Below are positions 1,731-29,027 of a DNA stretch of 32,000 nt, in pieces. The stretch spans positions 5,730,001 to 5,762,000 of the forward strand of contig CP104013.1 in the NCBI GenBank assembly GCA_025839675.1, written 5' to 3'. This DNA is from Candidatus Lokiarchaeum ossiferum (lineage in GTDB: Archaea > Asgardarchaeota > Lokiarchaeia > Sigyniarchaeales > Promethearchaeaceae). Under the pieces are notes generated by a model. The model had not been told where the DNA came from. It ran no database searches and saw nothing but the letters and a program-made list of their open reading frames with translations. Made by a program: the position numbers and the translations under genes. Every line of letters starts with the position of its first letter. Positions within the stretch are counted from its first letter, which is position 1.

Positions 1731-1742
1731 TTAATATCGTGC

Positions 1743-4354: not shown

Positions 4355-4360
4355 AATTTA

Positions 4361-7358: not shown

Positions 7359-7372
7359 TTTAGTAGTTCTCC

Positions 7373-8644: not shown

Positions 8645-8654
8645 TTTTCTCCGT

Positions 8655-9683: not shown

Positions 9684-9733
9684 CCTTTCGCTTCAAATTG
9701 TATTTTTATAGTTTATTTCCCGAATAGCAAGAT

Positions 9734-11000: not shown

Positions 11001-11711
11001 ATGCAAACCGGAACCGATGTGCTTCATCAAATTTGTAGTGAACCTCCCCTTTCGACAGGCCTTCTCCCCCTTGACACTCTGCTGCATGGGGGATTAACGC
11101 GGGATTTAGTGACCTTACTCATCGGGAATCCGAAAATTAATGCCCAAATTCTCCAACAGATTGCCTTAGAGGCCACCGTTCGTCTCCATCAGACACACCC
11201 CGAGACGACCCAGAAAATCTTGTATGTTGATGGGGCCAACCGCTTCAATCCATATCATTTGTCGCAATTAGCCATTCATCACGGGGTGGCGGCCCAAACG
11301 ATTCTCTCCACCATCTTAGTGTCACGGGCGTTCAATTGGTCCAACATGGTTGAAACCGTGGCCGAAAATTTAGATAAAGTGGCTGATACTCCCATTGATA
11401 TGATCGTGGTGTCAGGCCTCACCAAGTTTTTTGAAGAAGAAGCCGTGATCCCCCGCACCGACACCGCTTCCCCCCAATTGCGTCCCAAGGCTTTCGAAGG
11501 CTTGAATGCCATGTGTGCCGGTTTGAAACGCTTGCAAGCCAAGCATCATACTCGGATTTTACTCTCCACCACCCTCAATACTAAATCCACCGTCAAACCC
11601 GCAGGCGGGCATATTCTCACCCATTTTGCCAATGTCATCATCCGCATGCTCCCCTACCTAAAGTACCTTTTTCAGGTTAAATTTTTTCTTTTCATTTTCT
11701 ATCCCCCTTAG
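11001..11711 (+). CDS. RecA-superfamily (RadB/KaiC-like) protein with degenerate Walker motifs
   Basis: LPLDTLLHGGLTRDLVTLLIG resembles the RadA/RadB/KaiC segment leading into Walker A. However, the P-loop position reads GNPKINAQ (no GK[ST]) and the Walker B strand reads DMIVVSGL (no terminal Asp). GC is much higher than in neighbouring genes (35/60 in line 11041-11100). Confidence 0.45.
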   Translation: MQTGTDVLHQICSEPPLSTGLLPLDTLLHGGLTRDLVTLLIGNPKINAQILQQIALEATVRLHQTHPETTQKILYVDGANRFNPYHLSQLAIHHGVAAQTILSTILVSRAFNWSNMVETVAENLDKVADTPIDMIVVSGLTKFFEEEAVIPRTDTASPQLRPKAFEGLNAMCAGLKRLQAKHHTRILLSTTLNTKSTVKPAGGHILTHFANVIIRMLPYLKYLFQVKFFLFIFYPP

Positions 11712-11796
11712 TATTACCCAAGATTCCCATGATTCCTTTCTAATAGCAAAACTTCTTAGGGAATTACAACTAACCCTTCTTTGGAATTGAATTCGC

Positions 11797-12627
11797 ATGG
11801 GATACATCACAGAGAAAACAGACACCCAATGGATACCACCAGAAAAATATTGGGAGTTACTCCAAATGAAAACCAAAGTTCAATTTCTGCTCGACGATCG
11901 ATCCCAACCAGGAAGCATAGAACAGATTGTAAATTTGAAACCGTATATGCAATTTTTTTCACTCAATATCGCTTCCGGGGATGAAAGAGCGGAAAAGGAA
12001 ATGCTAAAACGGGTGTCGGATACTGTAACCGATTTTTCCGAAGTTCGCCACTATCGACTCACCTGGAAAGGAGATACTCATCCTACCTTCAATTTCCAAA
12101 AAACCCTGCGTCCCAAAATTACGGTTGGGCGATTACCTATTACCCCTCGGGTAAATTTTTCGGCGCTCCGGATAGAAACGTTAGAATACGCTGTTCAACA
12201 AGATCGTCTTCACCGATTTAAAGCCGAGTTTGGTCGCTCTTATCATGAAATGCGGTCGATGGCAAAAGAAAGGGATCCGAAAATTCAATCGCGAATGGAT
12301 GAAATTGAGAAATATTCTATTACTCTGCCCGATTCTTCGGCTTTCGGCGATTGGATATATTATGATTTGGCTTTTTATATGGATTCTTCCCGCAAGTATT
12401 ATATAGAAGGGCGGTTTTACGAGATCCAAGATCAACGGACTGTGGTCTTCTTTGCTCCGATGGATCCTTCCCTTCTCGGCAAGTTCCTCAATTACGCGGA
12501 ACAATGCGGGTTATATTTAGGCTATTTTGTGATTAATCCTCTCTTTCTCCTGATTCTAAAGAAAACTAATCATCTCTATATCGATTCTTTTGAGACGGCG
12601 AGTCGGGCGTTGAATTTTCAGCCATGA
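11797..12627 (+). CDS. hypothetical protein (higher-GC block)
   Basis: 276-aa ORF, 85 nt downstream of and co-directional with the RecA-like gene, with the same elevated GC. No motif recognised. Confidence 0.5.
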   Translation: MGYITEKTDTQWIPPEKYWELLQMKTKVQFLLDDRSQPGSIEQIVNLKPYMQFFSLNIASGDERAEKEMLKRVSDTVTDFSEVRHYRLTWKGDTHPTFNFQKTLRPKITVGRLPITPRVNFSALRIETLEYAVQQDRLHRFKAEFGRSYHEMRSMAKERDPKIQSRMDEIEKYSITLPDSSAFGDWIYYDLAFYMDSSRKYYIEGRFYEIQDQRTVVFFAPMDPSLLGKFLNYAEQCGLYLGYFVINPLFLLILKKTNHLYIDSFETASRALNFQP

Positions 12628-13792: not shown

Positions 13793-14578
13793 CTAAATTT
13801 TATTTTTTTTAATAGATTTTTGATTCCACTCTTCAAATAGAAGATCGATCGAATCGAGTTCTTTGGACACGTCACTGGTGCACCGGATTGATTGCTTTAA
13901 CCGGATAAACTTAAACCCCGACACGTTTTCTCCCACAAATTTGAGAAAATTTTCAATAAAGGTCGGAAACTGGGGAATGGCGTGACCCGGGTATTTGAGG
14001 GCTGCTTCCTGCGTAACAATTTCAATGGCTTTTTCCAGTTCCACTTCATCTCCTGGAATCAATTCAAATAATAATTCCTTGATCAATGCTATCACCAATT
14101 TGCGGAGATATTTCTCCATCGTTTCGTGAACTAATTGAGTAATTATTGAAAATATAGCAGGATGCACCCCAGTTTTAGATATGTGTTGCGCAATTCGTTG
14201 ATCATATTGTCTTGTCATAGAGCCCTGTTGTATCTCGAGTTCAGGTTTGAGGAACGGAAGCTCAATTGTCTTGTTATCTGGGTATCTGATTATGACTTTA
14301 TCTTCACTAATTTGAATTTGTTCTCCAAGATGGAGGGCCATTTTGGTACCTCTTGGATTAGTAAGATCCCCTTCAAGATTATCTTTCAAGCGCGGAATAA
14401 TAAGCCCTCCGGGTTGGAAGATAGATTGCTTTATGCAGATTTCCATCATTTCTGCCCGTCTTTTATCTAAATCTAATTTGATGACGCTACGTTTCCAGTT
14501 TTTAGGATTTGCTTGCGATTCGTTATACAATTCAGTCCAATAGTTATGTTCTAGATCCAAGAGACAATTTTTATCCAT
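13793..14578 (-). CDS. hypothetical protein, co-directional neighbour of the OLD nuclease gene
   Basis: The ORF-track start at 14677 is a TTG lying inside the direct repeat. I prefer the first ATG at 14578 (MDKNCLLDLEH...), giving 261 aa. No motif recognised. The gene starts 423 nt downstream of the OLD stop codon. Confidence 0.55.
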   Translation of the reverse strand: MDKNCLLDLEHNYWTELYNESQANPKNWKRSVIKLDLDKRRAEMMEICIKQSIFQPGGLIIPRLKDNLEGDLTNPRGTKMALHLGEQIQISEDKVIIRYPDNKTIELPFLKPELEIQQGSMTRQYDQRIAQHISKTGVHPAIFSIITQLVHETMEKYLRKLVIALIKELLFELIPGDEVELEKAIEIVTQEAALKYPGHAIPQFPTFIENFLKFVGENVSGFKFIRLKQSIRCTSDVSKELDSIDLLFEEWNQKSIKKNKI

Positions 14579-14626
14579 GCGAATACCATGCCTTAATTTG
14601 TGAATGACTTTGGCAAAAGAAAAGAG

Positions 14627-14792
14627 GAAGAAAATCACCAAAGACAAATACTCGGGTCCGCAAACCCTTTCTCTCAATCTTTGATGTTCACGATTTTCAC
14701 CCGATAGTGATCCCAGCAGGACGTTCTCTGCCGACGAAAGTCGTGAATAAAATTTTCTAAAGAAAAGAAAGACATTTTTCTATTTAAAGTCA
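14627..14792. repeat. direct repeat, copy 1 (166 nt)
   Basis: Ungapped hand alignment to 17343-17508 gives 152/166 identical. A 45-nt block is identical in both copies (14646-14690). About 39% GC (64/166 counted). On the minus strand it carries TTTAAATAG (14780-14788). Confidence 0.9.
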
Positions 14793-15001: not shown

Positions 15002-17140
15002 TCAGGAATTCACTATTGCTTGCAACATCTCTTTAATTTCACTAAATATTTCTTCTTTCGTTTGCAACTTAGTTATTCCTCCTAAATCCCGATTCTTCTT
15101 ATAACTTTTTCCAACTTGATGAAATAGGATATCTAATACTTCCGCACCTCGTATTATTGACAGTAGTTCATTATCAATTTCAAAAATAGATTCTTCTTTT
15201 GCCTCAAGAACCAAATTGTTGATTGCTTCGCGATTTTTAATTAAGGTATCGTTTGCCTCTACCTTTCTGTTTTTAATTATTTCGATCAAATTATCACATT
15301 GTTCTTGAAAATTATTAAGAAAATCATCATGGTTTTTTGTTTTAAAAATTTTTTTATCATTGAAATATATTGGATTGCATAATTCAGCAAAAACTCGTTT
15401 TTGAACTAAATCTGGCCCTGCATCAAATATTGCTTTGTTTAGATCTATTTTCTTACTTTCTACATCAGTTAAGTTGAATTGCTGCACTAAATATCGTGTT
15501 AGTATAATTGGATTTAAAACATAGTTTTCCAATTCTCGCCGTTTTAAGATAATTAGGTTAGAATTTTTAAAATCGGATAATTTTTCTTTAAATTTCTGGA
15601 TTTGATAATCAGAATTTTCATCTCGGTCGATTATGAACCACATTTTCATGCCTTGATCTTGTAAAAAATTCATGGTGGCACTAGCAGCATAATGGGTAAA
15701 GGATTTTATTCCGTTTAACACCACAAATCCAATGTGAAGGTCTTCCGGATTCATTCCAAGAGTAAAAAACCAATTATTAAATGCTTCTTTATCGGTGATA
15801 CCCTCAACAAAAATTAATTTATCATAGGTCAGAAGGTCGGCTGGAGATACTCCTAAACGAGTTGATGTTAAAATAAATTCTTCACGATCTAATCGTTTTA
15901 CAGTGGAAAAATCTTCACGACGTAAAACTTCATGTACACTTACTTTAGAACGAATTTGACTGAAAAAGAAAATGGAATGAGTTGAAATTAGTATTTGTTT
16001 GCCTGGAAGAAAATCTTGAATTACATTGAAAAGAATTTTTTGAAGCTTAGGATGCAAGTTTCCCTCGGGTTCCTCAATTAAAAGAATATTTTTTTCATCA
16101 GATTCCAATAAGTGAGTTAATATTATTACCAAATCCTTCAATCCTTTACCTAGAAAATCAAAATTTGTCAGATCTTCCTTATTATGTTCCCGAACAAACG
16201 GAATTATTTTGCCTGTGCTGAGATCTTGCCCAATTTCTGTAATATTCGAATAAAATTGCTTTAAAAGCAGATCTAATTTGTCTAATATTGGTTGCTTTTC
16301 TCGAATATTATAATATTGAAATAGTTTTTGGGGAAAATTATTACCATTGGGAGATATGGGATCGTGTATCAATTTCATCTCCATATTTGCTTGGAACTGG
16401 CGAACGTCTTCAATTGGATGGATATTGTCAAAAAACTGGAATATTTCTCTAAAAAAATATAAACCTAAAGACCACATTTCTTTTTTTCCTAAGTATTGAT
16501 CTACATCATGAGTAGTTCGCATATTATTTAGTTGAATCATGTCGGTTGTTATGGGGGAGATTTTCACAAATTCATTTATACCAACAAGGTAAAATTTAAT
16601 GGTAGTCTTCCTTATATAAGTGGATGAATGTAAAAAATTATATTTTTCAGATATTCTTGACTCATCCAATATTCCTGAGCCGTGAAGTGTGATCTTAGGA
16701 CCCAAATAAGTGATATATGACTTTCCTTCCCCATCAAATTTTATATTCATTTGAATTTTTTTAAAAAATTTCATAAAACCACATGAGATTTCATTCTCAT
16801 GGTAAACGATATTATGTTCCTGAATATTTTTAGGTGTCTCAGGGGAAAAATGTTCTTCTATTGCTTGCCAAATTTCCTGCAATTTAGCTCCGTTGAACCG
16901 AAATGTCATTTCTACTCCACAATCTGTGGATTTTTTCCCAGAACGGAATAAATTTGAATCGACAATTTTATGAAATCGGAATTGTTTTAGAAACCGAAAT
17001 AAGTTGGATTTACCGCTGTTATTAGGCCCAATAATTAGTCCGAGTTGATTTATTCGATCAAAACTTGCTTTCTGATAACTTAGAATATTCTCAAATTTAA
17101 TTGCTGTTAATCCCACTTTAGGTGAGTTCATGATTTCCAT
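15002..17140 (-). CDS. OLD-family nuclease (ABC-type ATPase fused to a Toprim domain)
   Basis: Walker A GPNNSGKS (aa 38-45), Walker B/D-loop LLIEEPEGNLHP, H-loop ISTHS, then a C-terminal Toprim domain with LIFVEGITDKE (catalytic Glu) and WFIIDRDENSD (DxD). This is the domain order of P2 Old and GajA. Confidence 0.85.
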   Translation of the reverse strand: MEIMNSPKVGLTAIKFENILSYQKASFDRINQLGLIIGPNNSGKSNLFRFLKQFRFHKIVDSNLFRSGKKSTDCGVEMTFRFNGAKLQEIWQAIEEHFSPETPKNIQEHNIVYHENEISCGFMKFFKKIQMNIKFDGEGKSYITYLGPKITLHGSGILDESRISEKYNFLHSSTYIRKTTIKFYLVGINEFVKISPITTDMIQLNNMRTTHDVDQYLGKKEMWSLGLYFFREIFQFFDNIHPIEDVRQFQANMEMKLIHDPISPNGNNFPQKLFQYYNIREKQPILDKLDLLLKQFYSNITEIGQDLSTGKIIPFVREHNKEDLTNFDFLGKGLKDLVIILTHLLESDEKNILLIEEPEGNLHPKLQKILFNVIQDFLPGKQILISTHSIFFFSQIRSKVSVHEVLRREDFSTVKRLDREEFILTSTRLGVSPADLLTYDKLIFVEGITDKEAFNNWFFTLGMNPEDLHIGFVVLNGIKSFTHYAASATMNFLQDQGMKMWFIIDRDENSDYQIQKFKEKLSDFKNSNLIILKRRELENYVLNPIILTRYLVQQFNLTDVESKKIDLNKAIFDAGPDLVQKRVFAELCNPIYFNDKKIFKTKNHDDFLNNFQEQCDNLIEIIKNRKVEANDTLIKNREAINNLVLEAKEESIFEIDNELLSIIRGAEVLDILFHQVGKSYKKNRDLGGITKLQTKEEIFSEIKEMLQAIVNS

Positions 17141-17508: not shown

Positions 17509-18005
17509 CGGGAAAGTCTTATTTTTAGATGGGTAAAAAATAAAATTAAACAAAACAGGTTCAACCAGCAATCTCAAGATGATGCCGCCGGATTACTTCT
17601 CTCATGATTCATCGAATACAGGAAGTCCAAGAACTGAACATCTTACAATGCATCAAGTTTCTTGGTAAACCCAACTTCCGCAAAGATATGCATATAACTC
17701 AAACACACACTTACCGTAGGTACATAGATCGAAAAATCAATAGTGATCTCCGTCATCTTACCTTATTAGATCAGCGAAGGCTTACAGAATCGGAAATGCC
17801 TTAAAAAAAGATCGCCCTCTCCTTGTTTATAGTTCATTTTGCAATGTTCCTGAATATGACGGCAATAAATGCGAAAAAGGCTGAAAAGAGAAAAAAAAAT
17901 CCCCAAAAAACTTCCTTGTACAAAGCATGCTTGATTCTAGGAATTTTTTAAGATATAATATATAAGATATAATTGATCAAATAAACAAACTGAGCTGTCC
18001 AAAAT

Positions 18006-18602
18006 ATGGCTACAATAATGAATCGAAAAAAGAATAATAAAATAATATCTTCGTTAATAGCTATTACTGCAATAATTATTAGGATTATGACAGATTACTT
18101 AATTAATATTATTTCAAATAATAATGAATGGATATCAACTCTTTTAGGAATAATTAAATTCGTATTTCCCACCCTATGTTTTTTATGGGTTTTTTTAAGA
18201 ATTTACGGAGATTATTGCGGAAAAAGACAAGAATTTCTTGAAATAATAGGATATTCAGGAACTAAGTGGTATCAATTTATAGATAAATGCTATGTAAAAC
18301 CTAATGAATATAAATCAATGAAGCACATTTTAAAAACTGAAAAAATTCTTTTTATCATTGGGCCTCCGCAGTATGGAAAAACCTATACAGCGGTAAAATT
18401 TCTTAAAGAATTTTATATTAAAAAAAAATTAAATCCTATTTGGATTAAAGGAGATTCAGTCCAAAACAGAAGAGTTTCAAGACAATTTTTGCTAGAATTA
18501 GAAACAAAGAATGTACAAGATTCAATCATCTATATTGAAGATCCTTTTGGAAAAACAAAGTATGAAAGAAGAGTTGGGATCGAGAGAAATTTGCTAGAAT
18601 AA
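18006..18602 (+). CDS. N-terminal fragment of a frameshifted membrane-anchored STAND-like P-loop NTPase
   Basis: Two hydrophobic helices (aa ~15-28 and ~45-66), Walker A GPPQYGKT (aa 119-126) and a Walker B-like SIIYIEDPFG (aa 173-182). The ORF stops 16 codons later at TAA 18600-18602. Confidence 0.6.
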   Translation: MATIMNRKKNNKIISSLIAITAIIIRIMTDYLINIISNNNEWISTLLGIIKFVFPTLCFLWVFLRIYGDYCGKRQEFLEIIGYSGTKWYQFIDKCYVKPNEYKSMKHILKTEKILFIIGPPQYGKTYTAVKFLKEFYIKKKLNPIWIKGDSVQNRRVSRQFLLELETKNVQDSIIYIEDPFGKTKYERRVGIERNLLE

Positions 18603-18721
18603 TCTCGTATATTAAAAAGACTACAAATTCATACCTAATAATTACTTCCAGAGATGAAACTTTTCAAAAATTTAAGGATAGTCAAATTCTTGGAGAAAAA
18701 ATAAGAAATTATTACGAAACA

Positions 18722-20005
18722 ATGAAAATATATTATCCTTCTTATGATTTATCAAAACGAAAGAAAATATTAAAAAAATGGGCAAAGATTGAGCATTGTT
18801 GGTGGAGGAAAAACCGAAAAATGAGAAATTTTATCTTTGATCAATTTAATAGCCCTATATTATTTCCTTCCCCTCTAAGTATTTGGAATTTTGCAGCTTT
18901 CTCGAAAAATATTAAGGAATTCGATGAAATAGAAAAAGAATTGTCTTCCACTCCAAACGAGTTTCTTAGTGATTACAGTAAAATATTTGAGAATTTATCT
19001 AGTGAAAGACAAATTATTTTCTGCCTAATATCCATTGCAGAGTGGAACGCTATTGTATTGGAAGCAAAATATGACCATCTATGTTCAAAGATTAATATTT
19101 CAAATCCCTTGGATTTTACTAAGTTAATAGAAATGCTAGAAGGGCAATATCTTATTATCTATAAAGAAGATAATGTATCCTATGTCAAATTTATTCATCC
19201 AATCTTTCATGAATCCTTTTTATTTAGCTTTTTTAGATCAAATTCTGTAAAAAATGGTTATAAAGAGATGATTGTGAAAATTTTTACTATGATGCTTGAT
19301 AGTGATTACTCTCTTTCTTTTGATCCCCACGATATTGATAGTGAATGGGATGATTTTGATGATTATCAAGACGAAACGAACGCTAGTTTAGTTAATGAAA
19401 AAAAAATATCTGATTTAGATCTTCATTTTAGTAACGAACCCATAATTGATTTTATAGTAAATAATTATAACATATTGCCAAATAAAATTCAACTAATTCT
19501 TTTTTCTCTTTCAGAAAAAGAAAATTCAGCAGGGATGGTCGGTAAGTGCTTATCTAATCATTTTTCAGAACTACCAGAAGAATTAGTAAAGCTGACAAAA
19601 AAAATTTTAACAGGTAATATTTGGCCTTGGGGACCCATTGAATATTTGATTGCGCAAATTAATTATATTCCTGGAGATTTTCAAAATATCATCTTGGATT
19701 TATCAAAGCAGGAAGAGTTTTATGTTGATATTAGCTATAGTTTCAGTCCATATTTTGACAACATCTCAGAAGTATTGCAAACTAAGCTTATTCATAATTT
19801 AATTGATAATGATCGTAGAGATCAATATATCTTGCATGCAATCAATTACCATTTTGATAAATTTTCATTATCAAGGAAAAAGGAAATAATTTCTCATATT
19901 AAATCCTACCCAGAATTAATCGATCTAATAAAAAATGGAAATATTAATCCTCATGATAATCAAAAATTAAAAGATTATTTACTCTTGGTAGATGGGGCAA
20001 TATAA
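18722..20005 (+). CDS. C-terminal fragment of the same STAND-like NTPase
   Basis: This frame is open from 18566 and reads ...EKFARIISYIKKTTNSYLIITSRDETF before the first ATG at 18722. LIITSR is the hhhTSR-type motif that follows Walker B in NACHT/STAND NTPases. About 400 aa of helical sequence follow. Confidence 0.6.
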   Translation: MKIYYPSYDLSKRKKILKKWAKIEHCWWRKNRKMRNFIFDQFNSPILFPSPLSIWNFAAFSKNIKEFDEIEKELSSTPNEFLSDYSKIFENLSSERQIIFCLISIAEWNAIVLEAKYDHLCSKINISNPLDFTKLIEMLEGQYLIIYKEDNVSYVKFIHPIFHESFLFSFFRSNSVKNGYKEMIVKIFTMMLDSDYSLSFDPHDIDSEWDDFDDYQDETNASLVNEKKISDLDLHFSNEPIIDFIVNNYNILPNKIQLILFSLSEKENSAGMVGKCLSNHFSELPEELVKLTKKILTGNIWPWGPIEYLIAQINYIPGDFQNIILDLSKQEEFYVDISYSFSPYFDNISEVLQTKLIHNLIDNDRRDQYILHAINYHFDKFSLSRKKEIISHIKSYPELIDLIKNGNINPHDNQKLKDYLLLVDGAI

Positions 20006-20292
20006 TTGATAGTCTATAATAAATCTAAAAAAATTTCAATCATCAAATTATTTATCTCCAATATTTACTTATTCGTATCTTAATTATTAAAAATGTTTAA
20101 AAAGGCTTTTTTCTAATTCTTTGATGTGTCCAGCAAAAAAGAGGAAATTATCCAACATTATTTTTCAGTAATTGAAAAAGCAGAATCTGATTCCCTAGTT
20201 ATTATTCAAAAAATTCGAGAATATTATACCACAAACCATGAATTTTCAAAAGAAAATATAATAAGTATTATCGAGGAAGGGGCAATAAGAGA

Positions 20293-22683
20293 GTGAAATT
20301 AAAAAATATTGATATAACCGCTTTTCGAGGTGTGCCTGCAACAAGGATTAATCTTGATAAAAAAAATTTAATCTTGTTAGGTGAAAATGGGTTTGGTAAA
20401 TCATCGATTGTGGAAGCCTTTGAATTTTTTTTTACCGGGGACCTGGAATTTAGAAAACCTCAGGAAATTCGTAAAGAGCATTTTACTACTTTAGGATTTT
20501 CCCCAGATAAAACCAAGCTGGAATTTACATTTGAGAATAATGAAATTCTTGAGAGAAATCTTACTGCCTTTGTTGATTTTGGCTCCAAATCAACAGAATT
20601 ATCTAACTTTGTCAAAAATTCTGCACTAGTTCGCTTTATCTTGCGGCGAAAACATATAATTCAATATATTGAAGCCCGTCCATCTATCCGATATAATGAG
20701 ATTACATCTTTAATTGGTCTGGATGATTTAAAAAAAGCAGAAACTACTTTTCGGAAAGTATTTCAACACTATGATAATAAATTGAGGCATATTGAAAACG
20801 ATCTCTTTCAAAAAGAAAAATACCTGTCTACACATCTACCAAAAACCAAAGATGGTGATTTCCTGCAGCGGATTAATTTATTTCTTCAACAGAATGATGT
20901 TAATTCAATTTCTTCTTTTCAAGAATTGGACAATAGATTAAAGACTTTAATCAAGGAAAATCCAGACAATTCAAATATTATTCAGCAATTCTCTTTTTTA
21001 AAAGCAACAAAGTCGAAATTATCCGAAGGAATCCGATTGATAAAATTATGTAAAAAATCACCTCTTAAATCCCATTTAGATGATTTCTTTCAATTTGATA
21101 AAGTTTTAATTACAGATATGGAAGAATCAAAGCAAAGACTATCATTCTTAATCGAATGTAAAAAACATCTACATATATCTAAATATCAAGGTATTTGCCC
21201 TGTATGTTCTCAAAGTATTTCCACCTCAGAAGTTGATAATAATATTGCAAATGAAATTAGAAGGTTAGAAGTCAAACTGGCTCAAAAAACAGAATATAGT
21301 CAAAAAATCACCATTTTGTTAAAAATGCTTCAAGATTTTCAAACTTATCTTAGTAAAATCATCTTATTAGATATATTTCCTATTAAAGAGCTGGATATAT
21401 TGAAAATGGTTAAAAAAAAAATTGAGGTATTTGATCAGAAAATTGAGGATATTGGAAAACCTAGTGGAAATATCTTTAAAGATATTGAATCTGATTTAAA
21501 TAATCTCGATAAATTTTTAAAAATTCAAATTGAAGGTATAAGAAAGAATTTACTCGAATTAGAGCCAGCGATAATATCTCATCCAAAATTTAATCTAATA
21601 AAGACCATTCCATTAATTCAGAAAACCTATCAAGATCTAATAGAATTACAAAAACAAGCAGAAATCATACTTCCAAAAAAGAAACTAACAGAAAAACTAT
21701 TAACTCACTTTTTGGATGTTGAGAGAAAAAAAATTCAAGAAATTTTTACAGAAATTCAGGAGAAAGTCCGAATATTTTATCGGATGCTTCATCCAACGGA
21801 TGATTTTTGTAATATAATTTTAGATCATGTTGATAACAATAAATTGAAACTTTTAATTGATTTTAGTACATCAAATGGTCAAGATCCACGTGCATATGAA
21901 AGTGAAGGACATCTTGATTCTTTAGCAATTTGTATTTTTCTGGCATATTTTAAAACCTTTCATAATGAATTTCCGTATCTTATTTTAGATGATGTTTTAA
22001 CCTCTATTGATAGTCAACATCGATCTAGATACTGTGATTTATTGTTATCTAACTTTCCAAATCAACAACTTATCATCACCACCCATGATAAAATATGGTT
22101 TGATTATATTTCTGGGCATATTCGAGCTAAAGGACAACAAAGTAAATTTTTAGAAATTCAGATAATCAGATGGGATCTAGAAGGCGGACTTCAATTTAAA
22201 AAAGTTATTCCTGAGGAAGATATGATCGATAAACTGATTGAAGATAATTTGATGAGTGCTGCTGGAAACCAGATAAGAATACTTTTTGAGAGAATTTTAA
22301 AAGATTTCTGTAAAATGTTTGAATTCTCGCTTAAATACAAGGAGAATAATGATCATACTATTGGTGATCTATTTCCCACTATAAAAAAGCAAATTTGTGG
22401 ACTAATTTTGAACGAACCTTTAAAATCTAGAGTGGACAATTTGTTTACAAAAATCGAAGCACATAGATGGATGGGAAATTTGCTCTCACATGATAATATG
22501 GATAGAAGTTCAATTACAACCGAAGAAGTTCAAATTTTTAAAGAATTGGTATTTTCTCTTAATAAATTATTTATTTGCGATGATTGCAATAATAAAATGG
22601 TCTATGCAAAAGAACTCAGAACAATTAAATGTAAATCTCTGGACTGTGTTTGTTCAAACCAAGGTGCAACAAAAAATCGGTAA
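20293..22683 (+). CDS. RloC-like protein: Rad50/SMC-type ABC ATPase with a coiled-coil zinc hook, a C-terminal PrrC/RloC-like HEPN region and a terminal zinc ribbon
   Basis: GTG start. ITAFRGV...LILLGENGFGKSS (Walker A, aa 30-37). A long Lys/Glu/Leu-rich insert has CPVC at aa 302-305. Signature-like SEGHLDSL, Walker B YLILDDVLTSID (aa 562-573), H-loop IITTHD. Downstream come R662-x3-E666 (QIRILFERIL), N729-x3-H733 (MGNLLSHD) and CDDC...C-x4-C-x-C (aa 762-787). Confidence 0.7.
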   Translation: MKLKNIDITAFRGVPATRINLDKKNLILLGENGFGKSSIVEAFEFFFTGDLEFRKPQEIRKEHFTTLGFSPDKTKLEFTFENNEILERNLTAFVDFGSKSTELSNFVKNSALVRFILRRKHIIQYIEARPSIRYNEITSLIGLDDLKKAETTFRKVFQHYDNKLRHIENDLFQKEKYLSTHLPKTKDGDFLQRINLFLQQNDVNSISSFQELDNRLKTLIKENPDNSNIIQQFSFLKATKSKLSEGIRLIKLCKKSPLKSHLDDFFQFDKVLITDMEESKQRLSFLIECKKHLHISKYQGICPVCSQSISTSEVDNNIANEIRRLEVKLAQKTEYSQKITILLKMLQDFQTYLSKIILLDIFPIKELDILKMVKKKIEVFDQKIEDIGKPSGNIFKDIESDLNNLDKFLKIQIEGIRKNLLELEPAIISHPKFNLIKTIPLIQKTYQDLIELQKQAEIILPKKKLTEKLLTHFLDVERKKIQEIFTEIQEKVRIFYRMLHPTDDFCNIILDHVDNNKLKLLIDFSTSNGQDPRAYESEGHLDSLAICIFLAYFKTFHNEFPYLILDDVLTSIDSQHRSRYCDLLLSNFPNQQLIITTHDKIWFDYISGHIRAKGQQSKFLEIQIIRWDLEGGLQFKKVIPEEDMIDKLIEDNLMSAAGNQIRILFERILKDFCKMFEFSLKYKENNDHTIGDLFPTIKKQICGLILNEPLKSRVDNLFTKIEAHRWMGNLLSHDNMDRSSITTEEVQIFKELVFSLNKLFICDDCNNKMVYAKELRTIKCKSLDCVCSNQGATKNR

Positions 22684-22754
22684 TTTTTTGATTAGGCGCT
22701 TCTTTCTAAAATTTACGTTATATCAAACATAAAAATTATATTGTTTCATTTTTT

Positions 22755-23252
22755 TTATTGTGACCAGTGATTCTGAGTAATTATCTTCTCCAATTTCAAA
22801 TATAATGAAATTCCTTTCTGAGCCAAAATCTTTGGTCCATCATTAAAGGGAGAAATCCCTTCTATCATAAAAGTTGGAGAATCTTCGACATCATTATCAA
22901 TTTCCCAATTCGCGAATAAATTTGATTGGGGAGTTTTTGGATGTTCTAATTCCCCTCTTTTAGCAGAAAATTTCTGAATTTCTGTGACTAATGATGTATC
23001 TATAAAATCCATTTTTTTTAATAGTTCATTCAATGTGGAAATTCTCCAATATTTCCTTTTATTATTAAAATGGGGTAATTCTCTTAATTTAACAATTAAT
23101 AATGAAGTCATCGCGGAATGAATGCAAAAAATTGCTCCAAAAAATAAATTTTCATTGAAGCATTTTAAGGCTTCGTTTTTCATTTCAAGAAAATGAAAAG
23201 ACCTATCTAAGTACAAACCTTTATTTTCGGGAGGGATTTTATCGTTCTTCAT
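22755..23252 (-). CDS. small helical protein with an Rx4H HEPN-like motif
   Basis: 165 aa. The N-terminal helix pair ALKCFNENLFFGAIFCIHSAMTSLLI resembles the first HEPN helices. SAKRGELEHP gives R99-x4-H104, matching the HEPN Rx4-6H signature. Confidence 0.4.
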   Translation of the reverse strand: MKNDKIPPENKGLYLDRSFHFLEMKNEALKCFNENLFFGAIFCIHSAMTSLLIVKLRELPHFNNKRKYWRISTLNELLKKMDFIDTSLVTEIQKFSAKRGELEHPKTPQSNLFANWEIDNDVEDSPTFMIEGISPFNDGPKILAQKGISLYLKLEKIITQNHWSQ

Positions 23253-23480
23253 TAGTAATACTTCTTATTCTTTATTAAAATTCAAATCTCTAACAAGATA
23301 TAAGTATTTCCATCAGATCTTTGGTTGGATAAAAAAAATCTGAGTATGACTGAGATTAATTTGACATACCGATATTTTAATGGTCGCTACAAAATCTTCC
23401 AATGTCTTCACCAATTCCAGAAATTATGAGCGTAAGTTGCGGATGAATCATCAAATAGCGTCAATCTGTTTTTGAGTTCT

Positions 23481-25676
23481 TCATTTGAATGGATCCTGTA
23501 ATATTATCCATTTGACAATTCCGTAATCAGTTGGTGTCTCTTGTTGATGAAGTATGCTAAACATTTTTGATACCGTTTGATCTATTCCCAAAGCGATACC
23601 TAAATTCTTATTTGTAATTCTCATATCTTCGATTAATTGACCTAAAACTTCATCCTTCGCAGTATTACTCTCAATTTTTTTTACTTCGATCAGAATATTG
23701 TTATCAACTGATATATCAATATGAGTTGTTCTCACTAATTTATCATTAAGAACAACGCTTGGGAAATGATTTCTCAATTCTTCACAGATTCGAGGGTTTA
23801 TTCCACGATCTTCATGAGGGAGTGGATCAGAAAACATCTCTTCCAATTTCAAATTCGAAAGAAATTTTGATAATTTGTTGAATTGCGGAGTTTTTGTAAA
23901 TATTGGTTGAAGCCCTAGTTTCCGTCTTGAGGATTCAATTAAAACCAATCCACGTTCAGTTGCAATATCCCGAATAGTTAATTGATTGGAAACAGAAAAT
24001 TCTTGCAATATTTTTTTTAGCACTGGGGATTCTAATTCTTCGGATTCTAACAAAATTTCTTTCATTGCATCAAGAGCGCTTTTACAAATAAGTTGGCATT
24101 CAACCAATTTTTCAGTATTAGGTATCATTTGTTGGGAAACTGGTATCTCTTGCCATTTATTAAGAATCTTCAAAATACCGCTAGGGAATAGTTCCCCAAA
24201 TTTTTCAATATCTGCTTTAAGTTTTCTAATATTTCTAGTAGTATCGACTACTTCTCCGTGTGTTAAATATAGGAGATCTTCAATAATTGTCCAAGTTGGG
24301 AGGCATTTATGAACCTCATCGAAATTTTCATTATATAAATCAAATAATTTGTGAAGTGTCTCAAACTTGGATTTTGCCTTCTTAATATCTCGATTTCCAA
24401 TAGCCAGCGGTATCTCATGTTGGATAATGTTAATTTCCAATTCTGCTTTCTCTTTTTCTGATATGCTTACACTAATTGCCTTTTGATTATACATTATTAC
24501 CTTTTTTGAATTTAAGGATTTTTTATAATGTTTAATTAAGTTGATGTAAATAGAATGTATGTCCTGTTGATGAATTTTGGAAAAAAAAGAACTTTCTATA
24601 TTCGGAACCACTTTTTCAAAATGAATTTTTTCATACAATGGAAGAAGCCTTTCAGCAATTAAGGGACAATAAAAAGATGTCTGTTCAACACAACTTAAAA
24701 TATCTTGCACAAAATTTGGATTCCATTGAATTGATTCAGGAGGAAGATCTAATTCAGGTACTTCCAAAATATTATTAAGCAAAGGTGTGAAGAAATCTAC
24801 GTATATCTGAATTGAATTTTCTTGAAAATCAACATAGGATGGAATGGAATTAAGTATTCGCAATAATTGCGATTGAGTTCTTAAATCTTCTGAAGAATTA
24901 TAATGATCAATAATTATCAAAATCCATTCGTTTTTATATTTCCTTGATTCAAAAAGGACATAATGCAAACCATCAATGAATGTTTGCTTTGCAAATTCAT
25001 CATTCAATCGATTATAATTCTCTAAATACTTATCAATAATCTCTTCACTCCAGTCCAAATATCGGATATTTCGGGCAAATCGAAGAAAACATTCACCTAG
25101 GATTTTCATGGAGTATGCGATTATATACTCATTTTCATTAGTTAAGCACAACTCTTGTAAACGATTAAAATGACCCTCGAATTTCTGGAACAAGGTTGAA
25201 GCAAACCTATCTAGAACAATTAATGAAAAAGTGATAATATCCAAATTATCAGAATAAATATTATTAAATAGTAGGGATAATAGTTCATTCATTTGAGAAA
25301 AAAAGAGGCGAGTGCATTGGGCTAAAATATGTAATCCCATGAGCTGATTTTTTAAAGAATCTCCTTGAATATTTTCCCAGATAAACTTTTTAATAGCAGA
25401 TTTCAAAATGGAATTATTTTGGCCATGAAAATCAACAAAAATATATCTAGCAAAAATTGAGGCGGAATAGGAAGGAAATTCTTCTTGATTATAGACACTC
25501 TCAATTCCTTCCAAAAACTCATCTAAATATTCTGGGTCGCGAGATAGTTTTTTTTGAATTTCACTTAGTTTCTCTTGATATTCTATGGTTATTTTGTTTT
25601 GAGAAATTCTCATATACTCATTTATTAGCTGATTGATATTCACCATGTTTAATCCCATATTAATATAAATGATCAT
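23481..25676 (-). CDS. large helical-repeat protein with an HTH-like segment and a C-terminal PD-(D/E)xK nuclease-like motif
   Basis: 731 aa. The N-terminal ~380 aa is all-helical and repeat-like. LTIRDIATERGLVLIESSRRKLG looks like an HTH. The C-terminus THIDISVDNNILIEVKK gives D654...E665-x-K667, followed by GQLIED. Alternative starts at 25658 or 25646 sit just after the upstream stop codon (25660). Confidence 0.55.
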   Translation of the reverse strand: MIIYINMGLNMVNINQLINEYMRISQNKITIEYQEKLSEIQKKLSRDPEYLDEFLEGIESVYNQEEFPSYSASIFARYIFVDFHGQNNSILKSAIKKFIWENIQGDSLKNQLMGLHILAQCTRLFFSQMNELLSLLFNNIYSDNLDIITFSLIVLDRFASTLFQKFEGHFNRLQELCLTNENEYIIAYSMKILGECFLRFARNIRYLDWSEEIIDKYLENYNRLNDEFAKQTFIDGLHYVLFESRKYKNEWILIIIDHYNSSEDLRTQSQLLRILNSIPSYVDFQENSIQIYVDFFTPLLNNILEVPELDLPPESIQWNPNFVQDILSCVEQTSFYCPLIAERLLPLYEKIHFEKVVPNIESSFFSKIHQQDIHSIYINLIKHYKKSLNSKKVIMYNQKAISVSISEKEKAELEINIIQHEIPLAIGNRDIKKAKSKFETLHKLFDLYNENFDEVHKCLPTWTIIEDLLYLTHGEVVDTTRNIRKLKADIEKFGELFPSGILKILNKWQEIPVSQQMIPNTEKLVECQLICKSALDAMKEILLESEELESPVLKKILQEFSVSNQLTIRDIATERGLVLIESSRRKLGLQPIFTKTPQFNKLSKFLSNLKLEEMFSDPLPHEDRGINPRICEELRNHFPSVVLNDKLVRTTHIDISVDNNILIEVKKIESNTAKDEVLGQLIEDMRITNKNLGIALGIDQTVSKMFSILHQQETPTDYGIVKWIILQDPFK

Positions 25677-26244
25677 ATATCATTTTTAATGTCGAAGAAT
25701 AAATGCTAAGGAGATTCTGGAGTTGTCCTAGTGATAGATCTGAGTGAGGTTTTCGAATCTCCCTGTCAAGCTCGTTTCCAATTGCCTTACATCGATAGAT
25801 CAAGAATTTTGCAGTACCTTCTTTTTCAATAGCATGATGATATATTTTTGGATCTTGTACCCCTAAATCCCGAATTAAATTCTCTATATGATTTTTTATT
25901 GGATTTTCCAAATTGATATATATATCTGAATGTTGTATTTTTATTACTTCTTTTAAAATAATTTTGAGTTCAAATTCAAATTGGGAAATCTCTTGATGAA
26001 AATCAAGAGAACCATGTATTATTCTGAGACCTTCAAATAAAGACACATAATATTGGTCATAATCTTCTTGGGAAGTAAATCGATTATTTTCCATTAAGGA
26101 GATTATATCTCCCAGAAGATCTTCACATTTTTCACACTTATAGTGGGGGTAATTCAGAATTCTCCCATTTTTCAACTTCATTGGAAAATGTTTTAATATT
26201 TTGGATGTAGGTTGTCTGCAAAATATACAGTATTTTTGACTCAT
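25660..26244 (-). CDS. zinc-ribbon protein, first gene of the operon
   Basis: 194 aa. C6-x2-C9 and C36-x2-C39 (CIFC...CEKC) form a four-Cys ribbon, and the rest is helical. It overlaps or abuts the 731-aa gene, which suggests translational coupling. Confidence 0.55.
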   Translation of the reverse strand: MSQKYCIFCRQPTSKILKHFPMKLKNGRILNYPHYKCEKCEDLLGDIISLMENNRFTSQEDYDQYYVSLFEGLRIIHGSLDFHQEISQFEFELKIILKEVIKIQHSDIYINLENPIKNHIENLIRDLGVQDPKIYHHAIEKEGTAKFLIYRCKAIGNELDREIRKPHSDLSLGQLQNLLSIYSSTLKMIYDHLY

Positions 26245-26922: not shown

Positions 26923-27471
26923 TCATGGAATATTCGATAAATTTAATGAAGGAAGAGGGTGGAAATAAGGAGATAATATTGAAATGGGGATGTTGAAAGA
27001 CATCATTAACAACCGTAAGACATGGACTCGAGATGCAAACGGGGATTTATGTGATTGATACGTGGTCCACAAAGGCCCATAAATCGAAAGGAATATCTGC
27101 CATACACTCGATTCTATGTAGTTAATCGAATGGAGAGCATCTGCACACAACCGATTGATCCAAGGATCGACGGCGATGATCGTTTTAGTGTGCAAAAAAA
27201 TGCGTAGGAGACTCTGCCGAAATTCCGCCTTACATAACGGAGGATCCGTTTTGATCCATGCATGAAGACTGTGTCGCGTTTTGAGATAAGTTAGATAGGA
27301 AATATCGAAGATGTGTAGGATGAGACGAAGGTTGACGATAAACCCATGCTTGCGCGCCCGAACTATAAAACAGACGGCTTGTTGTGCAAGAGACGCGTGA
27401 GGATAACGAGCGAGAAAACCAGCCATGTACACATAGGGCACCCCCAACTCAGAACATACTCTTTCCAGCAT
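26923..27471 (-). CDS. hypothetical protein (higher-GC block)
   Basis: The ORF-track start at 27480 is TTG. I prefer the ATG at 27471, which shares one base with the upstream TGA (TGATG). 182 aa. No motif recognised. Confidence 0.5.
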   Translation of the reverse strand: MLERVCSELGVPYVYMAGFLARYPHASLAQQAVCFIVRARKHGFIVNLRLILHIFDISYLTYLKTRHSLHAWIKTDPPLCKAEFRQSLLRIFLHTKTIIAVDPWINRLCADALHSINYIESSVWQIFLSIYGPLWTTYQSHKSPFASRVHVLRLLMMSFNIPISILSPYFHPLPSLNLSNIP

Positions 27472-27941
27472 CAACTGCAATCCCCCTCCCGATCGAAAGG
27501 CGAAAGATATCGACCTGCTAAGTCATCTTGAAGCAATGCATATACTTCAGATGGAAAGTAGATGGCGTGATATAAAGATCTTAACATATCCCAGTGGTGC
27601 ACGACGGTCCAATCGGGATTGATATTGGCCCCCCAGAGTTGAAAGAGAAATTCAATTCGTTCTTGCCAATCCGCAAAATCCAATAATTCCACCAGCAGAT
27701 CATGACACCGCTTGACTTCTAAGCGTGGTCCCACACAGGGTTGAAACCGTTCGGAAAGATCAAAGCGTTTTTCTTGGGTGATTAAGAAATTTTGCAGCAA
27801 AGTGGCATCCAGCGGAAAGTGTGCCAGAGTCTTAAGAAACCCATCTAAAAGCGTGCCTGTCTCCAAAAATGTGAAAATCGACTCGGGAATTCGTAGATGA
27901 TCCTTCCCTTTGGTCCCTTGCGAACATGAATCCTTAATCAT
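27471..27941 (-). CDS. hypothetical protein (higher-GC block)
   Basis: The ORF-track start at 28151 would overlap the upstream gene by 218 nt. The internal ATG at 27941 (MIKDSCSQG...) overlaps the upstream stop by 8 nt (ATGATTAA), a typical coupling junction. 156 aa. Confidence 0.5.
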   Translation of the reverse strand: MIKDSCSQGTKGKDHLRIPESIFTFLETGTLLDGFLKTLAHFPLDATLLQNFLITQEKRFDLSERFQPCVGPRLEVKRCHDLLVELLDFADWQERIEFLFQLWGANINPDWTVVHHWDMLRSLYHAIYFPSEVYALLQDDLAGRYLSPFDREGDCS

Positions 27942-28872
27942 TGAAGAACGCCCCCTTATAATCCAAAATGGAATTTTCTGAGGGAGAGATAACCTCCCCA
28001 TTGCGAATGTGCAAATCGTGAAAATCCAGTAGTAAAGTACACTTCCGTGCGAGAATACACCGACGAGGGGCCGCTTTCCCCAAATGGGTCTGTAGATCAA
28101 TATCAGATTTCCCGCACATGGGACACGTATTCGTTTGGCAAATAATGACATGTTGATCTCGTCCCAAAGGTACGATCTCGAAAGATCCCCGCATGGTCGG
28201 ATGGGTTTGTAAGTGGTGGATCCGATGGTGAGTTAGCCCCTTGGAAGGGATATATAGCAAACCTTGGCGCAGAATGGTCGGTGAAAATAAAGCTTTCTTA
28301 TCAAACTCTACCATGTGGCGGAGAGTGCTTAAAGACCCATAATAGCGCGCATACTTGCCAAATAGTATTAATTCTTCGGCATATTTCTCATGAAATAGAC
28401 ATTGATAAATAATCATGAGATCGAACAGTTTTTGACAATCTTGGGGATCAAAGAAAAACTTGGAATGTTCCTGGTGGCGAGAGAGAAACTTTTCAAAACA
28501 CATTATCCACTTAATCACAAACTTGGTATCTAATTCCACAAAATGTTGAAAGACCACTTTAAGCATCCGGAGAAGGAATTTCACTTCGGCAAAGGGAATC
28601 TGGATATGGCCATACTGCTGATACAGAGCAGTCTCCAAAGTCCACAATTCTCGAAAGTATTTAGGGGCAGCTGGAGATTTTTGATTATGGCGAATCAATG
28701 TATGTACAAAATCATTCCGATATTGCGCATAAACGCCTAAGGGATCGGTTTCAATGGCATGAGTGAGATCGTCATTTATTTTTTGGCCAAAAAACTGAGT
28801 CATCATGAGGTTCGGAACTTTACTGGGATCTGATACTAGGGCATTTTCAGGGGATAAAGGGACGGAAAGCAT
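27934..28872 (-). CDS. hypothetical protein with a Cys cluster (higher-GC block)
   Basis: 312-aa ORF, first gene of the minus-strand higher-GC operon. Contains C-x4-C-x2-C (CQTNTCPMC) plus two further Cys residues downstream. No family recognised. Confidence 0.55.
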   Translation of the reverse strand: MLSVPLSPENALVSDPSKVPNLMMTQFFGQKINDDLTHAIETDPLGVYAQYRNDFVHTLIRHNQKSPAAPKYFRELWTLETALYQQYGHIQIPFAEVKFLLRMLKVVFQHFVELDTKFVIKWIMCFEKFLSRHQEHSKFFFDPQDCQKLFDLMIIYQCLFHEKYAEELILFGKYARYYGSLSTLRHMVEFDKKALFSPTILRQGLLYIPSKGLTHHRIHHLQTHPTMRGSFEIVPLGRDQHVIICQTNTCPMCGKSDIDLQTHLGKAAPRRCILARKCTLLLDFHDLHIRNGEVISPSENSILDYKGAFFND

Positions 28873-28896
28873 TATAAAAATTTAACGCAGTTCAAC

Positions 28897-28906
28897 TATT
28901 TAAATA
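28897..28906 (-). promoter_or_regulatory. palindromic TATA-like box TATTTAAATA
   Basis: It contains the archaeal box-A consensus TTTAAATA on both strands. Its minus-strand 5' end is 34 nt upstream of the ATG at 28872. It sits in the 155-nt divergent spacer. Confidence 0.35.
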
Positions 28907-29027
28907 TTGCGAAAATCACAATATTAATATATTCATTATTAATATATAAATATCGAAAAATTTCGAAATCTTTAATAGGGCTGTCCAGCATGAGATCCTT
29001 AGTAAACAATTTGAGTTTGGAACCCTC

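Follow-up and report, generated by a model that had tools for sequence, protein, structure and literature searches.

A small gene paired with a zinc-hook ATPase that carries a predicted HEPN-like ribonuclease domain in Candidatus Lokiarchaeum ossiferum: a candidate conflict module of a large unnamed family

Introduction

Several described systems place a toxic effector under the control of an ATP-binding cassette (ABC) ATPase, and two of them, RloC and Lamassu, come close to the gene pair that is the subject of this work. The pair lies at positions 20,126 to 22,683 of a stretch of 32,000 nucleotides (nt) from the Asgard archaeon Candidatus Lokiarchaeum ossiferum Loki-B35 (assembly GCA_025839675.1, contig CP104013.1, positions 5,730,001 to 5,762,000 of the forward strand), which is called the window throughout. 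It consists of a small gene followed by a gene for a 796-aa protein in which an SMC/Rad50-like ATPase with a zinc hook precedes a HEPN-like domain and a zinc ribbon. We read the pair as a two-gene conflict module (defence or abortive infection) that belongs to a large unnamed family, and assign this reading a probability of about 60%.

RloC is defined, in the available passages of its description (PMC2610378), by an ABC head with a coiled-coil insert bearing a CxxC motif and by an Arg-X3-Glu-X36-52-His set in which a Ser often precedes the His. According to the same passages, RloC of G. kaustophilus measures 804 aa, with its hook at C291 and its catalytic set at R692, E696 and H737, and PrrC has a length of 341–416 aa. 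ABC-ATPases with a C-terminal HEPN domain are known in PrrC, RloC, APECO1_4465 and ERFG_01251, as listed in the available parts of a paper on HEPN proteins (PMC3710099), which also give R-x4-6-H with a polar residue after the Arg as the canonical HEPN motif and list a further conserved residue, acidic and placed in a preceding core helix, among the traits of the domain. In Lamassu, some LmuB subtypes have CxxC hooks and the LmuC gene is located just before LmuB, while the effectors named (Cap4, Mrr, Protease, Sir2 and Lipase) reside on a separate LmuA (PMC12663957). RAZR, finally, is a ribonuclease (RNase) of proven activity in which a DUF4145 HEPN domain is combined with a Cys4 zinc ribbon (PMC13017515).

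Results and Discussion

Architecture of the gene pair

The two genes and the parts of the larger protein are as follows, with the basis of each assignment in brackets.

20126..20296, + strand: small partner gene with a GTG start, whose 56-aa product is acidic with an isoelectric point (pI) of 5.1 (read as an open reading frame, ORF)
20293..22683, stop included, + strand: 796-aa fusion of an SMC/Rad50-like ATPase, a HEPN-like putative RNase domain and a zinc ribbon, GTG start
20293..20721, + strand: N-terminal half of the ABC head, aa 1–143, with Walker A GENGFGKS at aa 30–37, nt 20380–20403 (Pfam; Rad50 heads in the PDB)
20722..21789, + strand: antiparallel coiled-coil arm, aa 144–499, with the CPVC hook, aa 302–305, nt 21196–21207, at its apex (AlphaFold2, AF2; conservation)
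21790..22128, + strand: C-terminal half of the ABC head, aa 500–612 (conservation; PADLOC LmuB alignment of aa 1–613)
22147..22203, + strand: small beta-hairpin linker, aa 619–637, with W627 and G632 (AF2; W627 in 78/79 and G632 in 79/79 relatives)
22213..22566, + strand: all-helical HEPN-like domain, aa 641–758, with a predicted active site of R662/E666 (nt 22276–22290) and N729/H733 (nt 22477–22491)
22576..22653, + strand: Cys4 zinc ribbon, C762-x2-C765...C780-x4-C785, with C787 as an extra Cys (AF2; conservation)

The original prediction was made from the sequence of the window and described an RloC-like candidate in a probable archaeon. Both ORFs are found where it had put them, with the TGA of the small ORF overlapping the GTG of the ATPase in a GTGA at 20293–20296, the host is indeed archaeal, and each residue that it had named (Walker A and B, H-loop, CPVC, R662/E666, N729/H733 and the Cys cluster) sits at its given position. 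Chance is no explanation for these residues because they recur as invariant or largely conserved positions across relatives with 19–32% identity to the window protein; the special case of R662 is treated below. The alignment used for all conservation counts comprises 79 full-length archaeal and bacterial relatives.

The motifs of the C-terminal head half include a signature-like S537-E-G-H540, Walker B LILDD (D566, D567), a D-loop at D573 and an H-loop at TTH598. The Walker B/D-loop region reads YLILDDVLTSID at aa 562–573 (LILDDVLTSID), and the H-loop IITTHD ends at H598 (aa 593–598). Invariant in all 79 relatives are N32, G35, K36, S37, C302, P303, C305, S537, L565, D566, D567, D573 and G632, and H598 is kept in 75. 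The invariance of Walker A and its partner motifs indicates an ATPase under selection for nucleotide binding. In the AF2 model of the full-length protein (predicted local distance difference test, pLDDT, 76), the split head emits a helical arm of approximately 350 residues (helices 144–293 and 311–499, turn at 300–308) that folds back at the CPVC loop. A split ABC head with a long coiled coil and a CPVC zinc hook, as originally proposed, is thus borne out by the model and by the hook conserved in 79 of 79 relatives, and the arm is antiparallel with the CxxC at its apex.

Searches of the window protein place its head among the Rad50 and SMC proteins. Pfam returns SMC_N (E = 3.6e-13) and AAA_15 (7.5e-10), a PDB sequence search returns archaeal Rad50 heads (3e-9), and Foldseek of the full-length model ranks Rad50, cohesin, SMC and condensin heads on top. 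NCBIfam adds RecF and Rad50 matches, all sub-threshold, and the relatives show faint matches to Pfam Rad50_zn_hook. These top structural and PDB sequence matches, together with the Gene Ontology term "double-strand break repair" that RefSeq attaches to plasmid-borne copies, would also suit a housekeeping ATPase of the Rad50/SbcC type, active in repair or chromosome maintenance, in which the C-terminus would be a non-catalytic nucleic-acid-binding module; non-catalytic HEPN domains do exist, according to the parts of PMC3710099 at hand. Rad50/SbcC, the partner of Mre11/SbcD, indeed shares the head fold, the antiparallel coiled coil and the zinc hook. Nonetheless, the present family differs by a much shorter arm, by its extra HEPN and ribbon module and by a distribution like that of mobile elements, which is sporadic and includes plasmids, Tn7-like elements and defence islands. 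No Mre11/SbcD gene is present in the window or among the conserved neighbours of the relatives, and none adjoins the ATPase gene in any locus. Moreover, an invariant Glu, Asn and His combined with an Arg at one of two positions (see below) is the signature of a catalytic site and not of a binding surface. We consider a housekeeping role highly improbable.

A relocating arginine in the HEPN-like domain

The C-terminal domain of the window protein contains the motifs QIRILFERIL (R662, E666) and MGNLLSHD (N729, H733). E666, which is part of a long helix (aa 654–675) in the AF2 model, is invariant in 79/79 relatives, as are N729 and H733. Of the PrrC/RloC-type catalytic set that was initially suggested, Arg-x3-Glu with a downstream His, the Glu and the His are therefore upheld as invariant, but the Arg is not: R662 is an Arg in only 62/79 relatives. 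S732, directly before the His, occurs in 33/79. All 17 relatives without R662 carry R728 directly before N729, which creates a canonical R-N-x(3-5)-H, and none of the 62 with R662 has R728, so that proteins with both or neither number 0/79. In a second set of 91 independent cluster representatives, 80 have R662 only, 10 have R728 only and 0 have both or neither; one of those 80 shows a His in the N729 column, probably a misalignment. The window protein itself has a Gly at position 728 and keeps N729-x3-H733. A neighbour-joining tree of the 79-sequence set requires two changes of the Arg position, and the representative P0036 marks a separate switch within the R662 clade, which brings the number of independent switches to about three. 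The raw counts thus overstate the statistics, as they stem from some three events, yet the rule is without exception.

Such a pattern is expected if the active site needs one Arg and either one of two adjacent helices is able to provide it, and as far as the alignment can tell it links the R-x3-E...H arrangement of PrrC and RloC to the canonical HEPN site. Both motif traits of HEPN proteins are found here, R-N-x(3-5)-H in 17/79 and the acidic E666 in 79/79, and a divergent HEPN domain is the best reading of the C-terminal part, for which we infer RNase activity. In the AF2 model of this part (pLDDT 89.8, predicted template modelling score 0.82), the domain is all-helical and followed by a two-strand Cys ribbon. 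The highest probabilities in a Foldseek search of the PDB go to HEPN proteins, namely 2q00 (0.94), 2hsb (0.75) and Csm6 6tug (0.69), plus 1o3u and 4nqf, with E-values of 0.2–1.5 for the first three and of 0.2 or worse throughout. Pfam DUF4145, of the HEPN clan, matches the C-terminal domain at E = 0.0017 with 18.8 bits versus a cut-off of 23.1 bits, and HEPN-clan matches (DUF4145, HEPN_Apea, HEPN_Cthe2314) appear in six of 30 C-terminal domains, all sub-threshold. A PDB sequence search with C-terminal profiles gave zinc-ribbon noise only, no meaningful match to the C-terminal model emerged from Foldseek among viral structures (BFVD) and PADLOC gave no relevant match to the C-terminal domains. 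A word-indexed protein search with a HEPN-only profile retrieved two fragments.

The additional terminal Cys cluster of the original prediction proves to be a real ribbon that most members conserve, with C762 kept in 72/79 relatives, C765 in 67/79 and C780 in 76/79. The AF2 model has two short strands at aa 768–780, and weak profile matches point to the ribosomal zinc ribbons eS27 and eL43. HEPN and ribbon together recall RAZR (PD-T7-4), which likewise joins a DUF4145-like HEPN domain to a Cys4 ribbon, needs its Arg and His for defence and is active as an RNase only when assembled. RAZR is a protein of 25 kDa with an N-terminal ribbon and no ATPase that is activated around phage ring proteins (PMC13017515), and the likeness drawn here depends on the sub-threshold Pfam match of 18.8 bits.

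Two length variants of the family were noted. Members of a clade of Pyrinomonadales, Verrucomicrobiota and Synechococcus (L045, L051, L055, L059, L092 and L095) end around 36 residues past the catalytic His and do not have the Cys4 ribbon; their upstream ORFs are longer, 74–131 aa by first-start calling. Conversely, a subgroup of about 960 aa, mainly from Chloroflexota (L049 at 5989–8880, L060, P0089, P0100 and P0103, among others), has some 170 extra residues after the ribbon, in which Pfam finds no match.

Relation to RloC and PrrC

The likeness to RloC that was originally proposed holds for the architecture and for the R-x3-E...S-H pattern as given in the available passages (PMC2610378), but not for membership of RloC/PrrC. 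Shared with RloC are a single chain of around 800 aa, a head split by a coiled coil with CxxC, a C-terminal domain of the HEPN type, an Arg-x3-Glu with a downstream (Ser-)His (R662-x3-E666 and S732-H733 in the window protein), an occasional linkage to restriction-modification (R-M) genes and common GTG starts. The Glu-to-His spacing is another matter: it is 66 in the window protein, and 62–83 in 79 of the 79 members, compared to 36–52 in the available description of RloC; a spacing longer than that of PrrC had been noted in the original prediction. Further differences are the invariant Asn four residues before the His, the Arg at the canonical HEPN position in around 20% of the members, the Cys4 ribbon, the overlapping small partner gene and the broad presence in archaea. 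An invariant Asn, an obligatory small partner and a C-terminal ribbon find no mention in the passages of the RloC paper at hand (PMC2610378). PrrC, whose catalytic columns are R320, E324 and H356, and the other ABC-HEPN proteins resemble the family in having an N-terminal ABC ATPase that regulates, or in the family would regulate, a C-terminal HEPN RNase and in their location in or near R-M loci. PrrC, unlike this family, has no coiled-coil or zinc-hook insert and is far shorter.

Profile searches agree with this separation. The original prediction had proposed a search against Pfam AAA_13 (PF13166), to which the window protein has no match at E <= 1. Its relatives mostly reach 25–30 bits against a cut-off of 36 bits, and only over the ATPase and hook part. 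One relative, Aliiroseovarius L097, scores 47.9 bits over the hook and the C-terminal head (model positions 236–599 of 713). The PADLOC PrrC model yields 16 bits, in one relative only. No solved structure of RloC or PrrC appeared in the PDB fold and sequence searches, nor in a literature search for a cryo-EM structure of PrrC.

Could the protein still be a true, divergent RloC orthologue, i.e., a DNA-damage-responsive anticodon nuclease that excises the wobble nucleotide of a tRNA? Its plan and size (796 aa with a hook at C302), its Arg-Glu-Ser-His pattern, the linkage of some members to type III or type I R-M genes, as in some RloC, and the above-threshold score of L097 would fit. Against it stand the missing AAA_13 match of the window protein, the scores of most relatives below the cut-off, the fact that no match extends to the nuclease part of the model, the spacing, the small partner and ribbon that are absent from the RloC passages, and PADLOC scores for LmuB that far exceed those for PrrC. 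We judge orthology distinctly unlikely. Based on the published motif description and the profiles, the family appears to fall outside RloC/PrrC as currently defined, and on present evidence the window protein may work like RloC by analogy but should not be filed as RloC.

Relation to Lamassu

The best PADLOC model for the window protein is LmuB PDLC03859 (E = 4.2e-22), which aligns aa 1–613 with positions 3–597 of 611. It is also the best model for four bacterial relatives (E = 1e-21 to 3e-27), at modest scores of 75–94 bits. The original prediction had named a best hit to LmuB, Wadjet JetC or plain SbcC, combined with a C-terminus that is not nuclease-like, as an outcome that would speak against it; LmuB does come first, but a nuclease-like C-terminus is present. 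The likeness to Lamassu (e.g., DdmABC of Vibrio cholerae) extends to the zinc-hook variants and to a small gene directly 5' of the SMC gene, and by analogy the logic may be the same, with a DNA-sensing SMC protein that controls a toxic effector. In contrast to Lamassu, the putative HEPN RNase effector here joins the ATPase in cis, at its C-terminus, and there is no separate LmuA, and the upstream protein of about 60 aa is unrelated in sequence to LmuC, with no PADLOC or Pfam match.

A compacted Lamassu, with the ATPase as LmuB, the small ORF as a miniature LmuC and the effector fused to the LmuB C-terminus, would account for the alignment over nearly the whole 611-position model, for the hooks that occur in some LmuB and for the small ORF in the LmuC position (PMC12663957); Lamassu effectors are modular as well. 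Yet 75–94 bits are modest for around 600 aligned residues, no LmuA-like gene or LmuA C-terminal domain occurs in approximately 75 loci, the small protein is far below the LmuC size implied by mutated residues up to 149 (PMC12663957), and the word HEPN occurs 0 times in the main text of that paper. This derivation is unlikely in our view. On the basis of sequence comparison, we would place the family in a third branch of its own among the zinc-hook SMC-like immune ATPases.

The small partner gene

The possible coupled small ORF of the original prediction is conserved, and overlaps the start of the ATPase in essentially all homologous loci. A short ORF that ends at or overlaps the ATPase start was seen in every homologous locus first examined, including one that gene callers had missed, and an ORF of about 47–70 aa occupies the same place in 73/75 further loci with a full-length ATPase; the lengths run longer where the first in-frame start over-extends the ORF. 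A hidden Markov model (HMM) built from 16 small-protein sequences was run against the six-frame translations of all loci and the window (8,126 ORFs, minimum length 35 aa). It gave 47 matches, every one of which is a same-strand ORF immediately 5' of the ATPase, and these include bacterial loci of Legionella, Alicyclobacillus, Herbinix and Bacteroidota. Because of these 73/75 loci and 47/47 matches directly upstream, the small ORF is, on sequence grounds, a real and co-inherited partner gene. A chance ORF in AT-rich DNA had been considered as well and is ruled out by the family-wide conservation and the specificity of the HMM. The small proteins have a median length of 61 aa and a median pI of 4.6. 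No Pfam, NCBIfam or PADLOC family matches them, and plasmid-borne copies are labelled "hypothetical protein" in RefSeq.

Two putative signals accompany the small gene, both read from the sequence only.

20096..20103, + strand: TTTAAAAA, archaeal TATA-box-like, centred about 26 nt 5' of the small-ORF GTG
20273..20282, + strand: GAGGAAGGGG, purine-rich and Shine-Dalgarno-like, about 10 nt 5' of the ATPase GTG, within the end of the small ORF

The position of TTTAAAAA suggests that the two-gene operon transcript is leaderless or nearly so and starts at or near the GTG of the small ORF. GAGGAAGGGG and the GTGA overlap are consistent with coupled translation of the ATPase, and the small protein is probably an acidic, helical product that is translated by coupling from the same message. 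A sigma-70 promoter scan of the window was also run, but the bacterial consensus is uninformative for an archaeal host.

The arrangement invites comparison with toxin-antitoxin pairs, in which case the acidic 56-aa protein would be a labile inhibitor, either covering the HEPN site or keeping the heads from engaging, and not a structural adaptor or a sensor subunit. Its upstream place, stop/start overlap, small size and acidity (pI of about 4.6 in the family) are typical of proteic antitoxins, in essentially all loci the two genes are inherited together, and HEPN toxins are commonly restrained by a partner, as the available passages of PMC3710099 state. On the contrary, the sole match to an antitoxin family, of the MazE/PemI type at E = 0.04, is noise, the small protein has no evident DNA-binding fold, and RloC and PrrC are controlled by their own ATPase domains and not by an antitoxin. 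A toxin-antitoxin-like pair therefore strikes us as somewhat unlikely.

Family size, distribution and genomic company

An exhaustive protein search with an HMM from a 10-sequence alignment retrieved 23,606 proteins at E <= 0.001 and 2,396 representatives (50% identity clusters) at E <= 1e-30. The best 150 matches all have E < 1e-134 and are mostly full length. A first word-indexed search had returned 16 proteins and badly underestimated the family, which was corrected by the HMM search and a genome scan; the latter, which took a single genome for each GTDB species, detected no fewer than 249 loci. Archaeal members occur in Methanobacteriaceae, Helarchaeota, Methanoperedens, Archaeoglobus, Methanolobus, Bathyarchaeota, Thermoplasmata, Methanomassiliicoccales and Haloplanus, and bacterial members in, among others, Chloroflexota, Acidobacteriota, Verrucomicrobiota, Nitrospira, Legionella, Synechococcus, Treponema, Herbinix and Alicyclobacillus. 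Plasmid-borne copies occur in Hymenobacter, Fibrella, Rhizobium, Aliiroseovarius, Phaeobacter and Bradyrhizobium. A tblastn search of plasmids with one relative hit 32 records, of which the best-covered ones and all five that were inspected (H1, H11, H16, H24 and H26) belong to the same family, and viral contigs carry a few copies too. This patchy spread over archaeal and bacterial phyla indicates horizontal transfer.

Public names for the members are AAA family ATPase, ATP-binding protein, hypothetical protein, RecF and SMC, and none is RloC or nuclease. Neither the PADLOC models nor Pfam nor NCBIfam provide a system-level name. Similarly, a defence survey of Loki-B35 with PADLOC and DefenseFinder reports pVip, R-M/DrmD, two Pycsar systems, Gabija, RM IIG and Prometheus (10.64898/2026.02.13.705702). 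The module is not listed there and thus goes unrecognised by current tools.

The neighbours of the relatives are the company typical of defence and abortive-infection genes. Most frequent among them, with 15 loci, are genes for SNF2/PLD helicase-nucleases. Type III R-M genes lie directly downstream in several loci, with the N6_N4 methylase (Mod) in seven and Res in five; in L065, L067, L068, L074, L088 and L025 the N6_N4 methylase is followed by a ResIII helicase-nuclease on the strand of the module. Other neighbours include MmeI/Eco57I-type and type I methylases, NERD, AbiE, HipA and Tn7-like genes.

Proposed mechanism and its weighing

By analogy, the gene pair probably acts as an anti-virus switch of the RloC or Lamassu kind. 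In HEPN RNases, two domains side by side form one active site. The protein would dimerise via its zinc hook and, in the ATP-bound state, via its heads. Sensing would fall to the head and coiled coil, as it does in Rad50, RloC and Lamassu LmuB, and what they respond to is probably DNA that is foreign or broken, or else the failure of a linked restriction system. Engagement of the heads would then place the C-terminal HEPN domains of both chains next to each other and thereby activate RNA cleavage, which would halt translation in the infected cell; the target is possibly tRNA, as for RloC and PrrC. The small acidic protein may be an antitoxin-like brake, or an adaptor on the coiled coil or head where LmuC or the SbcD C-terminus sits.

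A number of observations weigh against the conflict-module reading. The residue after the Walker B Asp is an Asp (D567, nt 21988–21993), in 79/79 relatives, and not the usual catalytic Glu; this may imply that ATP turnover is slow or that the ATPase is only a binding switch. We take the Asp-Asp pair to be RecF-like, which presumably goes with slow, switch-like hydrolysis. None of the HEPN profiles of Pfam reaches its curated threshold in the C-terminal domains, and with Foldseek E-values of 0.2 or worse the fold assignment depends mainly on motif logic. Beyond the small ORF, no neighbour of at least 80 aa is conserved across the approximately 75 loci, and with no conserved third gene the trigger cannot be read from context. 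Finally, silence in the Loki-B35 survey shows only non-recognition and not a defence role.

If the conflict-module reading is right, thousands of proteins labelled AAA family ATPase would form a defence system, and the family would be a second independent case, beside RloC, in which an RNase is placed under a Rad50-like DNA sensor, with a plausible physical coupling from head dimerisation to HEPN dimerisation. The alternating Arg would be a natural experiment on how an R-x3-E...H site can arise from the canonical HEPN R-N-x-H, and the micro-protein would be a regulatory component that the passages on RloC, PrrC and HEPN at hand do not mention. A wider claim, to which we give somewhat less than an even chance, is that a micro-protein and an SMC-HEPN-ribbon fusion together form an unrecognised and very widespread immune system of two components, evolutionarily placed between RloC and Lamassu, in which head engagement, driven by ATP and DNA, would assemble the composite HEPN site under a gatekeeper of 60 aa, in Asgard archaea, methanogens and many bacterial phyla. 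The interest, which stems from a large family without a name, from its conserved micro-protein and from the relocation of the Arg, is tempered by the weak statistics behind the HEPN fold assignment. Candidatus Lokiarchaeum ossiferum is among the few cultured Asgard archaea, which brings this biology within reach in a eukaryote-relative lineage, and a virus-host system has been reported for a sister strain of Loki-B35 (10.64898/2026.02.13.705702).

Genomic surroundings in the window

The module is part of an island (window 18000–26000) with a guanine-cytosine (GC) content of 26–30%, compared to 31–38% in a flanking operon for cobalamin salvage/biosynthesis and BtuFCD-like transport (475–10669). 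This low GC content is consistent with horizontally acquired DNA. Two patches stand out from the rest of this genome by their high GC fraction (0.40–0.46): 11001–12627, which has a Rad51/KaiC-like ORF and one ORF without a Pfam match, and 27000–29000, whose ORFs have no Pfam match. An Rfam scan of the whole window returned no RNA family.

Upstream, a gene on the minus strand (15002–17140) encodes a 712-aa OLD-family protein, GajA/OLD-like, with an ABC ATPase (AAA_21, AAA_15) and an OLD-like TOPRIM domain. Next to it lies a 294-aa ORF (13793–14677, minus strand) with no Pfam match. A Gabija operon clustered with Pycsar systems is reported for Loki-B35 (10.64898/2026.02.13.705702), and the OLD-family gene may belong to it. 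Closer to the module, the C-terminal half of a 198-aa ORF (18006–18602, plus strand) corresponds to the start of an nSTAND3 P-loop NTPase (E = 4.5e-10). It is followed after 120 nt by a 427-aa ORF (18722–20005, plus strand) that lies directly 5' of the module and has no family match, and the two together look like a split/frameshifted or two-part STAND NTPase. Downstream and convergent with the module are a 165-aa ORF (22755–23252, minus strand) without matches and a 731-aa ORF (23481–25676, minus strand). The last 90 or so residues of the latter show a weak likeness to PD-(D/E)XK_3 / GxxExxY nucleases (E = 0.002–0.005, below the cut-off), and the two ORFs may be a further conflict gene pair within the low-GC island.

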